DNA of 64,000 bases, taken from positions 1-64,000 of the IMG/VR virus record IMGVR_UViG_3300042934_000619; one strand, written 5' to 3'. Source of the stretch: a virus. This document shows, in pieces, positions 69 to 2,563 of this stretch; the first letter of the stretch is position 1; each line of letters begins with the position of its first letter. The translations under genes were made by a program, and so were the position numbers. Below the pieces are notes generated by a model, which was not told the DNA's origin, searched no databases, and saw nothing but the letters and a program-made list of their open reading frames with translations.

Positions 69-84
69 TGTTCCACGTGAAACA
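69..84. repeat. parS-type palindrome 1 (TGTTCCACGTGAAACA)
   Basis: Matches chromosomal parS consensus TGTTNCACGTGAAACA; lies directly before the RBS of 103..312. Confidence 0.85.
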
Positions 85-102
85 TCGACGAAAGGACACC
101 GC

Positions 103-312
103 ATGCCGGTGAAGGAATGGATCATCGAAGGCAAGTACACCAGCGGTCTCGGATCGGAGTGGGAGGAGATCGAAACCGTCACGGAGGAGGACACCGGCGG
201 ACCGGGCGACACCCTGAAGGGACACGAGTACGGCAAGTGGCTGGTCAACGAGTACCGCGTGGCGCACGTCCCTCACCCGGTGCGCATTCGCCCGAAGCGC
301 AGCACCGACTGA
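103..312 (+). CDS. hypothetical protein
   Basis: RBS AAAGGA, high-GC3 codon usage. Confidence 0.75.
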   Translation: MPVKEWIIEGKYTSGLGSEWEEIETVTEEDTGGPGDTLKGHEYGKWLVNEYRVAHVPHPVRIRPKRSTD

Positions 313-326
313 CCAAGATCACGGAA

Positions 327-342
327 TGTTCCACGTGAAACA
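327..342. repeat. parS-type palindrome 2
   Basis: TGTTCCACGTGAAACA, intergenic, before RBS GAAGGAG. Confidence 0.85.
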
Positions 343-363
343 TCGACCGAAGGAGACACACGC

Positions 364-849
364 ATGACCACACTGACCGAGCTGATCAAGCACGACAACG
401 TGCAGGCGCACTGGTTCTGGACGCACAGCGTCAGCACCGGACCGTACGACCAGTACGAGGTGTACGACGTCGTGTTCGTGCGGAACACCGACGAGACCGC
501 CCTCAACGGCGGCAACACCCGAACCACCCTGCACCTGCGAGGCATCAGCGATTGCACCGCCAACGGCATGAACAAGCACGGCGGGAAGCTGATCTACCCC
601 GACCCCGTCGAAACGCTGGCCCACGTGGTGGCCGACGCGCACATCGCGAACATGTACCGCACGTTCGCCGGATGGGCGGACGACCAGCGCGACATGAGCC
701 TCAGCTACCGGGAAGCGCTGGCTGACTTCGAGGACTGGGAGATCCATCGTGCCCGGCACGCGGAGATCTCACGCTGGCTCGGGCAGGAGGACAGCGACGC
801 TTACGACGAGTACGTGAAGGCGGCGCAGAAGTACGCCGCCGAGCACTGA
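364..849 (+). CDS. hypothetical protein
   Basis: RBS GAAGGAG, high GC3. Confidence 0.85.
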   Translation: MTTLTELIKHDNVQAHWFWTHSVSTGPYDQYEVYDVVFVRNTDETALNGGNTRTTLHLRGISDCTANGMNKHGGKLIYPDPVETLAHVVADAHIANMYRTFAGWADDQRDMSLSYREALADFEDWEIHRARHAEISRWLGQEDSDAYDEYVKAAQKYAAEH

Positions 850-850
850 A

Positions 851-866
851 TGTTCCACGTGAAACA
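851..866. repeat. parS-type palindrome 3
   Basis: TGTTCCACGTGAAACA just after the stop codon ending at 849. Confidence 0.85.
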
Positions 867-924
867 TCGACGTGCCGTCGGCATCGCACCCCGCTCGCCG
901 GGGTGTGGTGCCGGAGCCATGCAT

Positions 925-940
925 GGTTCCACGTGAAACA
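925..940. repeat. parS-type palindrome 4
   Basis: GGTTCCACGTGAAACA upstream of GTG at 960. Confidence 0.8.
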
Positions 941-959
941 TCGAGACAGGGGAGAGACC

Positions 960-1226
960 GTGAACAACCGTGTGCGCACCTACCTGATGGACGCCGACGG
1001 GCCGCCTGTCCTGCGAGTGATCCTGCCCGGCGGAGTCGGCACCGTGGAGATCGAGACCGGCCTGACCACCGCCGACGGCAGGCCGCGCGTGCGGGTCGAC
1101 GTCACCTCCGACACCACCCGCTACGGACCGGCCACCGACGGCAACTCCTACGCCGTGACCAACGGCGACCCCGGACCGGGCGTCGTGTTCGTGACGGGGG
1201 AGCAGCCGGGGCAGGAGCAGCCATGA
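960..1226 (+). CDS. hypothetical protein, paralogue of 11993..12304
   Basis: GTG start after GGGGAG; shares LP.G.G.V.I.TG...G.P.V.V.V.S.T...PA.DG..Y. Confidence 0.8.
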   Translation: MNNRVRTYLMDADGPPVLRVILPGGVGTVEIETGLTTADGRPRVRVDVTSDTTRYGPATDGNSYAVTNGDPGPGVVFVTGEQPGQEQP

Positions 1227-1402
1227 GCTACCGATGGTGCCGACGCTGCGCACAGGGCAAGTGCAGCAGACTGCGCCACTGGCGCATGCGCTGCCGCCTG
1301 TGCGATCGGTTCAAGGTGTTCAGGGGTCCGGCGTGTGCACCCTGCCGCATCGACGCCCGACGCCTGGTCGCTGATCTCTTCAGCGACCGTTGTTCCACGT
1401 GA
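1223..1402 (+). CDS. small Cys-rich protein
   Basis: ATGA overlap with upstream gene, three CxxC motifs. Confidence 0.55.
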   Translation: MSYRWCRRCAQGKCSRLRHWRMRCRLCDRFKVFRGPACAPCRIDARRLVADLFSDRCST

Positions 1403-1406
1403 AACA
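1391..1406. repeat. parS-type palindrome 5
   Basis: TGTTCCACGTGAAACA; supplies the TGA stop of 1223..1402. Confidence 0.85.
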
Positions 1407-1424
1407 TCGAGACAGGAGACACGC

Positions 1425-1697
1425 ATGCCGAAGTTCGACGTGACCGACCACTCAATCAGCTACCGGCCGACCACCCTGCGCCCCTACGTGAGCGGGTACA
1501 ACGCCACGTGGGGCCTGAGCGTCAACGGCAAGCCGATCGGCACCGTGTGGGAGACCGAGGACGACAAGTACGCCGGGCAGATCCAGGGCACGACCTCCGA
1601 CGGCCAGCACCGGGGGTACACCTGCCCGCGCCTGCCGTCCCGCGAGTCCGTGATCGAGCGGCTTGAGGAGATGGCCGAGCGCATCGGCATCGCCTGA
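1425..1697 (+). CDS. hypothetical protein
   Basis: RBS CAGGAG, high GC3. Confidence 0.8.
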   Translation: MPKFDVTDHSISYRPTTLRPYVSGYNATWGLSVNGKPIGTVWETEDDKYAGQIQGTTSDGQHRGYTCPRLPSRESVIERLEEMAERIGIA

Positions 1698-1698
1698 C

Positions 1699-1714
1699 TG
1701 TTTCACGTGAAACA
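1699..1714. repeat. parS-type palindrome 6 (perfect TGTTTCACGTGAAACA)
   Basis: Perfect 16-bp palindrome containing the Streptomyces parS core GTTTCACGTGAAAC. Confidence 0.9.
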
Positions 1715-1725
1715 TTGAGAGGAGC

Positions 1726-2007
1726 ATGACAATGCCGACCTACGGTGGCACCCCCGTCCTCACCCCTGACCAGGCCGAACACGCACAACGCGTGGCCAAC
1801 GACTGGTTCAAGGCGCAGGGGTTCGAAGACACCGAACTGCCCGCCATGTACCAGCCCGGACACGAGGGCCCCATGTGGGTGCTCTCCCTCGAAGGCGGGC
1901 CCGAAGACTGGCCGATCCTCCTGTCCCACGACGACACCGTGACGTGGCCCGACGGCATGTACGTCGAACCGGTCACCCACTGGTGCCTCGGCCTGTACCC
2001 GGCCTGA
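1726..2007 (+). CDS. hypothetical protein
   Basis: RBS GAGGAG, high GC3. Confidence 0.8.
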   Translation: MTMPTYGGTPVLTPDQAEHAQRVANDWFKAQGFEDTELPAMYQPGHEGPMWVLSLEGGPEDWPILLSHDDTVTWPDGMYVEPVTHWCLGLYPA

Positions 2008-2010
2008 CCG

Positions 2011-2232
2011 ATGACGTTCGCATTCGGCCAGCGCATCCGCACAACCATTGACGCAGGCGGCGTCATCACCCCGTTCGTGCCGGTCGGATCGTTCGGCACC
2101 GTCATCTACCCGATCGACGACGCGGGTGACATCGGCGTACTCATGGACGGCGACTCATCCGGTGCAACACACGCCTACGGAGAGGACGAAATCACCGTGA
2201 TCGCCGACGCCCCCGACTGGCTCCGCGACTGA
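2011..2232 (+). CDS. hypothetical protein
   Basis: Tight spacing to upstream stop. Confidence 0.65.
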   Translation: MTFAFGQRIRTTIDAGGVITPFVPVGSFGTVIYPIDDAGDIGVLMDGDSSGATHAYGEDEITVIADAPDWLRD

Positions 2233-2233
2233 A

Positions 2234-2249
2234 CGTTCCACGTGAAACA
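2234..2249. repeat. parS-type palindrome 7
   Basis: CGTTCCACGTGAAACA after the stop ending at 2232. Confidence 0.8.
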
Positions 2250-2305
2250 TCGAGGACACCGGCCACTAAGGTCGGTGCCCTCACCCGACAAGAAAGGACA
2301 CGACA

Positions 2306-2563
2306 GTGCGCAGCATCCGCATCGAGACCCGCACCCTGCCCCCGACCGAAACGAAGGACAAGCGCGTCCGCGTCCGCTCGCAGGACGGCACCGTGGCCGA
2401 CTACCCGTGGGACCACAGGTACGACGCCCACGAGGTGCACTACTTCGCCGCCCGCAAGGTCGCCGTCATGGAGAACCCCAACCAGGAGATCACCGTGGTC
2501 AAGTCCGCCGACGCGGACATGGGCTACGTCTTCCTCGCCGTCATCGGGCGGGTCGCACAGTGA
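2306..2563 (+). CDS. hypothetical protein
   Basis: RBS AAAGGA, GTG start. Confidence 0.75.
   Translation: MRSIRIETRTLPPTETKDKRVRVRSQDGTVADYPWDHRYDAHEVHYFAARKVAVMENPNQEITVVKSADADMGYVFLAVIGRVAQ

Follow-up and report, generated by a model that had tools for sequence, protein, structure and literature searches.

The first 64,000 nucleotides (nt) of the virus record IMGVR_UViG_3300042934_000619 (102,442 bp), hereafter referred to as the window, contain a series of short repeated sites at gene junctions, which by their sequence are genuine parS of the chromosomal type, i.e., the sites at which bacterial chromosomes are bound by ParB. We consider it probable that these are true parS sites that load the ParB of the host, and that they ancestrally formed a hybrid partition module together with a ParA encoded by the phage. 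The phage under study is designated G000 and its three complete or near-complete relatives G001, G002 and G003; counts given for four genomes refer to this set.

The array and its full extent

An earlier note on this DNA had placed seven copies of the motif at 69, 327, 851, 925, 1391, 1699 and 2234, and all seven were found exactly there, between genes of the + strand; it was also correct in stating that the rest of the window has no other full copy. The seven sites are listed below.

69..84, + strand: parS site 1, TGTTCCACGTGAAACA; 18 nt ahead of the ATG of gene 103-312
327..342, + strand: parS site 2; separates gene 103-312 from gene 364-849
851..866, + strand: parS site 3; starts right behind the TGA of gene 364-849; a hairpin-prone stretch comes next
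925..940, + strand: parS site 4; outer-base variant GGTTCC; next come the ribosome-binding site (RBS) and the GTG that opens gene 960-1226
1391..1406, + strand: parS site 5; internal TGA at 1400-1402 ends the Cys-rich frame 1223-1402, with gene 1425-1697 next
1699..1714, no strand assigned: parS site 6; perfect palindrome TGTTTCACGTGAAACA, ahead of gene 1726/1732-2007
2234..2249, + strand: parS site 7; outer base CGTTCC, after the TGA of gene 2011-2232 and followed by a hairpin and then gene 2306-2563

Six of the seven read GTTCCACGTGAAAC, and the one at 1699-1714 is the perfect palindrome. The 3' flank is ATCGA in six and ATTGA in one, which bears out the remark that the motif is usually followed by TCGA, and the TGA within site 5 is the stop codon that one of the sites had been said to supply. 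The parS 16-mer gave 14 strand-hits in the window, compared to a mean of 0.12 in 100 dinucleotide-preserving shuffles, none of which reached 14.

The assignment of the sites to the leftmost gene cluster, on the other hand, proved to be an artefact of the point at which the record is cut. The ends of the record overlap exactly over 127 bp, and the assembly is therefore circular, with a unique length of 102,315 bp. The array continues across this junction with seven further sites (97661, 98217, 98984, 99302, 101026, 101534 and 101774 of the record), which the earlier note had missed, just as it had left unremarked the conserved asymmetry described below. Overall, G000 possesses 14 unique sites, all in a single block of 6.9 kb at a density of roughly one per 0.5 kb, and zero in the remaining 95 kb.

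Conservation in relatives had been named beforehand as a point on which the parS assignment could fail, but the sites turned out to be strongly conserved. The three relatives, viral contigs measuring 104-117 kb, have their structural and replication modules in common with G000 (portal identity 74-79%, capsid identity 77-83%). The motif occurs in them 24, 32 and 20 times as an exact copy, bringing the total in the four genomes to 90; a metagenome fragment of 14 kb from this lineage contains 28. When two mismatches were allowed, only 0-3 extra sites per genome appeared; a given site is thus either perfect or missing. The relatives mostly do not share the genes at the array junctions, but the junction sequence does not vary.

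Identity of the sites with chromosomal parS

In the profile of the 90 sites, the conserved unit is a near-palindrome of 18 bp, ATGTTCCACGTGAAACAT, which is bordered symmetrically by weaker CG. Its 14-bp core is exact at all 14 sites of G000 and at all 90 sites, while the outer T is found in 80 of the 90 and the outer A in 86. An 18-bp palindrome as the unit of conservation is what would be expected of a dimeric binder.

The claim that the motif is the ParB-binding parS sequence of chromosomes proved exact over 16 bases. The phage 16-mer is identical, letter for letter, to the parS located inside the parB gene of Bacillus subtilis (PMC4333373), and as a 16-bp inverted repeat it fits the Corynebacterium parS consensus TGTTNCACGTGAAACA (PMC7022226), as chromosomal-type parS should; the parS listed for Mycobacterium and Streptomyces are near-identical to it (PMC7022226). 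A short-query BLAST search recovered the phi29 family. The site of its member PZA, AATGTTCCACGTGAAACAT, is situated at a gene junction too and matches the actinophage unit over 19 bases without a mismatch.

Streptomyces chromosomes, as those of the candidate host clade, served as the benchmark. The rsmG-parA-parB loci have 3-4 perfect parS each, and five whole genomes (7.4-9.1 Mb) have 12-21 sites clustered around the origin region; loci and genomes share the same 14-mer, in all four T/C forms. Thus, one phage genome holds as many predicted ParB-loading sites as a Streptomyces chromosome, or more. On a separate note, many origin-proximal chromosomal parS in the Streptomyces genomes G022, G027 and G036 have the C/C form GTTCCACGTGGAAC in place of the textbook GTTTCACGTGAAAC; judged from these sequences, the usual parS form differs between Streptomyces species.

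ParA in the relatives and candidate binders

Each of the three relatives encodes a full-length ParA/Soj ATPase of 265-271 amino acids with intact Walker motifs (Pfam AAA_31, E ~1e-61; PHROG 'ParA-like partition protein'). These proteins were first noticed in a metagenome scan, in which they matched proteins that adjoin parS pairs in many bacteria. The parA gene has sites on both sides in G002 and G003 and lies at the array edge in G001, so that genetic linkage of the parS array to a ParA ATPase is present in the three relatives and absent in G000. The closest bacterial homologues are seven chromosomal ParAs of Streptomyces, which are 69-70% identical end to end. In a quick maximum-likelihood tree, the phage ParAs formed a single clade (SH-aLRT 95) that was sister to the ParAs of the class Actinomycetes as a whole and outside Streptomyces; the gene was therefore captured long ago. 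The relatives also carry a tyrosine recombinase of the integrase type. Neither parA nor the recombinase was found in G000, though its 14 perfect sites were kept.

No ParB_N domain or ParB-type helix-turn-helix (HTH) scored above threshold in any of the four phage genomes; the statement that the window has neither parA nor parB was upheld and indeed extends to the whole of G000. The pairing of ParA with a phage-encoded ParB, which characterizes the parABS cassette of actinobacteriophages, was not seen, the neighbours of parA being ORFans of 53-109 amino acids. Two sets of candidates were rejected: a faint ParB_N match in G001 was spurious, as the protein concerned is a VWA-domain core protein (phrog_26613) of unknown function, and the weak HTH_ParB matches belong to ordinary XRE helix-turn-helix proteins.

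The XRE-type proteins deserve attention in their own right, since the motif could be the operator of a phage HTH regulator that shuts off early genes in the manner of a stoperator, its likeness to parS being coincidence or mimicry. The stoperators of Cluster A mycobacteriophages are asymmetric 13-mers that are bound by the phage repressor and are spread genome-wide. The present sites resemble them in being many, short and conserved, in short intergenic gaps and oriented with transcription, but differ in being palindromic parS in one region, with no matching repressor found. It would suit an operator that the sites are intergenic, co-oriented and restricted to an early-type region, and that among the several XRE-type proteins of the lineage, which are otherwise scattered, exactly one is conserved in all four genomes. 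In G000, its gene lies at 87,996-88,283 of the record, on the opposite strand, between the portal and terminase genes; the protein has a conserved acidic C-terminal tail in the three relatives, which the G000 copy lacks. Nonetheless, the nearest site is more than 9 kb from this gene in all four genomes, and no XRE gene lies consistently within the arrays, whereas the repressor of stoperator-type sites would be conserved together with its sites and regulated through them. Furthermore, a chance match to parS at 16 of 16 positions, or 19 of 19 when the phi29 family is considered, is very unlikely; the chromosomal-type parA embedded in the arrays would be left unexplained; and any host that contains ParB would bind the sites with it anyway. 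We thus regard the operator explanation as unlikely.

Placement, orientation and RNA folding

All genes across the arrays share one direction, and the sites occupy their junctions. Sixty-one of the 90 sites are non-coding, although non-coding DNA makes up only 12.5% (P ~6e-34). Among the 29 sites that overlap genes, 26 are read in one frame as a C-terminal tail, (D/N)VPRETS; most of these tails stop 1-8 codons beyond the motif, and several of the reading frames continue for 50-125 codons. A gene start follows within 45 nt for 68 of the 90 sites, with a median distance of ~20 nt. Junction gaps that contain a site measure 36-73 nt, those lacking one 1-13 nt; therefore, such a tightly packed operon has no room left except at the spot ahead of the RBS.

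The sites are strongly asymmetric at the fourth base. In 84 of the 90, C occurs on the upstream half only; the remainder comprises three of the reverse form and three perfect palindromes, and none has C on both halves. In Streptomyces chromosomal sites, in contrast, either half can have T or C at this position, with many C/C sites. Halves of both kinds, GTTCCAC and GTTTCAC, are bound by ParBs (PMC7022226). The computed folding energies of the sense RNA are listed below.

C on the upstream half: -1.2 kcal/mol
Reverse form: -5.2 kcal/mol
Perfect palindrome: -5.7 kcal/mol
C on both halves: -8.1 kcal/mol

The C-upstream form is the sole ParB-compatible form that leaves the RNA beside the RBS unfolded. 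The orientation bias would be explained by transcription through the sites, if a hairpin next to the RBS is to be avoided. We infer that transcription runs through the sites but that their recognition occurs at the level of DNA, which would reconcile a symmetric dimer with a strict orientation. The three reverse sites, all in G000, are 31-55 nt from the next start codon and, by our reading, lie within longer inverted repeats.

The same placement raises the question of whether the motif acts in RNA or in transcription: it could be a translational operator ahead of the RBS, a site of RNA processing, or a promoter that a modified RNA polymerase reads. The short distance of most sites to the next start and the alignment of site orientation with transcription might indicate such a role. 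However, the dominant form is the one of which the RNA does not fold, a palindrome points to recognition of double-stranded DNA, and the position before the RBS is the only free space available. The motif bears no likeness to -35 or -10 elements, a consensus promoter scan of the junction region returned no site, an Rfam search of the same region gave no match, and terminator-like sites there were at the level of shuffled sequence. Neither Sigma70_r2 nor a single-subunit RNA polymerase was matched in the four genomes, the latter search being the weaker one, as its control was silent; the open reading frames (ORFs) large enough for a polymerase are the Prim-Pol and two unscanned ORFs of the structural module, presumed to be tail proteins. 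That no phage sigma factor or RNA polymerase was found to make the motif a phage promoter is in favour of parS function, and a role in RNA or transcription seems very unlikely to us. It is to be noted that a conserved, hairpin-prone element of ~45 nt lies directly 3' of one parS site in each of G001 (L193), G002 (L195) and G003 (L196), which may be a terminator or a small RNA.

Alternatively, the motifs could mainly be recombination linkers, i.e., identical junctions of 18-22 bp that let related phages swap or duplicate gene cassettes, with the sequence itself being incidental. The flanking genes are indeed highly mosaic among the relatives while the junction sequence is identical, recombination without inversion requires co-orientation, and the single frame of the (D/N)VPRETS tails suggests a shared junction module that was spread by copying. 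Such an explanation, however, does not account for the exact parS sequence, the palindromy or the presence of parA in the array, nor for the three sites of G000 in which the asymmetry is flipped inside otherwise direct flanks. Recombination may rather be a by-product than the primary function, and as such is compatible with ParB loading; as the main role of the motif, we find it improbable, even slightly more so than the operator.

The phage and its host

G000 is a tailed phage, with genes for a portal, a ClpP-type protease and an HK97-fold capsid, as well as Prim-Pol, a family A DNA polymerase, helicases and a Ro60 homologue. At the nucleotide level, no cultured phage matched it in either the near or the distant search mode. 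By protein, its nearest cultured relatives are actinophages throughout: Streptomyces phage Dagobah for the portal (48%) and capsid (52%), and Gordonia and Arthrobacter phages for the polymerase (38-40%). A capsid-profile scan of bacterial genomes recovered no prophage, but a subsequent search by genus did recover prophages in three Streptomyces genomes, G027, G022 and G036 (L425-L427), of which the capsids are 61-62% identical to that of G000, i.e., above any cultured phage; no parS sites were found near these prophages. The host of the lineage is probably an actinomycete, and the ParA identity and the prophage capsid matches together make Streptomyces the best guess, a genus assignment that is probable rather than proven.

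A proposed hybrid partition module and its possible roles

Inside an actinomycete host, the parS on the phage DNA are predicted to load the ParB of that host. Given 14 sites in 6.9 kb, and 20-32 sites in the relatives, against 12-21 in an entire Streptomyces chromosome, ParB should assemble into a large complex on the early-gene region. The three relatives would have kept the ancestral state, in which a phage ParA, the host ParB and the phage parS make up a hybrid partition module. Such a module would position or segregate the phage genomes, for instance in a carrier or prophage-like state or for entry into spores, as phi29 does with Spo0J. G000 would then have lost parA and the tyrosine recombinase and yet kept its sites; since all 14 remain perfect, the sites still matter without a phage ParA. 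The earlier note had listed segregation, tip targeting, a ParB sink and silencing as candidate purposes. Genome positioning or segregation, including spore entry, is in our inference the most economical purpose. In addition, ParB may silence the early operon, and the sites may titrate the ParB of the host.

Several considerations weigh against this interpretation. The binding of the sites by ParB is predicted from a sequence match, and the host of this uncultured phage is placed only to a probable genus. The phage ParAs are sister to all ParAs of Actinomycetes and not nested in Streptomyces, and G000 itself is without parA. The one XRE-type protein conserved in all four genomes could in principle bind the palindrome. 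The placement of one site per junction over 7-25 kb is unlike known centromeres, which hints at an added regulatory or recombinational role. Lastly, the recombinase of the relatives is integrase-like, so that partition may not be needed for maintenance.

A more elaborate version of parS function, which we offer as speculative and rather doubtful, would assign the array a part in the switch between dormancy and takeover. Loaded at each junction of the early operon, clamps of host ParB-CTP would silence the takeover genes and hold a dormant, partitioned carrier state, in which phage ParA would spread the copies along hyphae or into spores; in parallel, every replicating phage genome would drain ParB from the 12-21 sites of the chromosome and disturb its segregation as well as sporulation septation.

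Genes and non-coding DNA around the G000 array

The genes between the sites of the window are small ORFans, and no Pfam or PHROG family was matched by the genes inside the G000 array.

103..2563, + strand: co-directional small ORFan genes between the sites, at 103-312, 364-849, 960-1226, 1223-1402, 1425-1697, 1732-2007, 2011-2232 and 2306-2563

The TGA of site 5 closes an open frame that spans 872..1402, of which the likely start is the ATG at 1223. The resulting frame, 1223-1402, is a small Cys-rich ORF (~59 amino acids, with CxxC pairs) that overlaps the stop of gene 960-1226 via ATGA and was missed by the gene caller. On the other side of the circular junction, the genes at 95,950-101,000 of the record (L012:4450-9500), including a 347-residue ORFan, are atypical in codon usage when compared with the genes after 101.5 kb, with G/T-ending codons, a low coding score and a positive GC skew; this part of the array may thus be a module that came from elsewhere. 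Outside the window, a non-coding stretch of 1.3 kb (94,650-95,950 of the record; L012:3150-4450) immediately precedes the array and contains a tandem pair of -10-like elements (TATACT, TGATAGACT), each followed by an identical GC-rich leader of 32 nt, and several palindromes of the GCTCAYATGAGC type. This stretch, which showed no conservation in the relatives, may be an early promoter region or an origin; the GC skew of G000 gave no landmark for the latter.

Distribution of parS arrays

Scans of IMG/VR and metagenomes for motif pairs mostly returned ordinary bacterial or plasmid centromeres, and in IMG/VR, gene-scale arrays were seen solely in this phage lineage. Dagobah, the nearest cultured phage, has zero sites. 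Dense arrays in low-GC metagenome contigs were considered as similar gene-junction arrays and ruled out, as they are tight tandem repeats. These unrelated, lower-GC contigs (loci L259, L257, L271, L282, L293, L278 and L248) have 11-29 parS sites each, either in tandem repeats with periods of 42, 43 or 87 bp or spaced by 40-230 bp in non-coding DNA, and resemble oversized conventional centromeres.

Two other occurrences were recorded. In IMG/VR sample 3300045988, contigs of ~11 kb (L088, L108, L119, L096, L109, L074 and L059) bear parS 16-mers at each of their two ends, in pairs with a spacing of ~42 bp and in an inverted arrangement that would suit terminal inverted repeats of small linear elements. 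Certain cultured actinophages, namely Gordonia phage Orchid and phages of Microbacterium, Arthrobacter and Clavibacter, have one to three host-type parS; those of Orchid (NC_030915.1) are at 78,481 and 79,446, in non-coding DNA near the right end of the genome. The literature that we searched made no mention of host-type parS in these phages.

Comparison with known systems and significance

The closest precedent is phi29, which, by the account of Meijer et al. (2005) as relayed in PMC2731898, has five parS sites through which the host Spo0J traps the phage genome in spores. The present lineage resembles the phi29 family in that a phage without parB bears host-type parS at a gene junction, the PZA site being identical over 19 bases, and in that its probable host group is spore-forming. 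It departs from phi29, with its five sites in 19 kb and no parA, in having 14-32 exact sites in a fixed orientation, one per early-gene junction, and, in the relatives of G000, a host-derived parA. Moreover, its host belongs to the Actinomycetota in place of the Bacillota, and the lineage is known from sequence alone.

Mycobacterial parABS prophages encode both ParA and ParB, and have their own parS repeats beside parAB. They share with the present lineage the property of being actinophages with a Par system for genome maintenance, documented for the extrachromosomal mycobacterial prophages (PMC7157519) and presumed here. They differ in that ParB is absent from the present phages, and that the sites, spread over 7-25 kb, are the parS of the host chromosome.

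Mobile elements that exploit the partition system of another replicon are also represented by the genomic island SGI1, which hijacks the ParABS system of IncC plasmids in Gammaproteobacteria (PMC10954446). In that system, the partners are an island and a helper plasmid, whereas here a phage would pirate the ParB of the host chromosome. Finally, proteins of the ParB family that bind multiple intergenic sites can repress the neighbouring genes, as do KorB of IncP-1 plasmids and, at parS3/parS4, the ParB of Pseudomonas aeruginosa (PMC7022226, PMC5521831). The junction-placed sites of the phage could likewise have a second, repressive role; however, KorB is plasmid-encoded and has its own operator, while the binder here would be that of the host, and silencing is hypothetical.

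As far as our literature searches show, phi29 and, among other replicons, SGI1 had already exemplified the principle, and it is the scale and architecture of the actinophage array that are new; no description of host-type parS arrays, or of such an orphan parA, in actinophages was found in the literature searched. Within the same literature, the experimental record of phage use of a host centromere system is confined to phi29 and its Bacillus relatives. The present lineage would represent the same trick in actinophages, with 14-32 perfect sites per genome, a captured parA and no parB. The orientation rule offers a concrete prediction for parS in transcribed DNA in general, i.e., that ParB binding is retained while an RNA hairpin is avoided. 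If host ParB binds these sites, the lineage would provide a natural test bed for the coexistence of ParB-CTP clamps with transcription, for the competition of a foreign replicon with the chromosome over ParB and ParA, and for the persistence of phages in multicellular, sporulating hosts.

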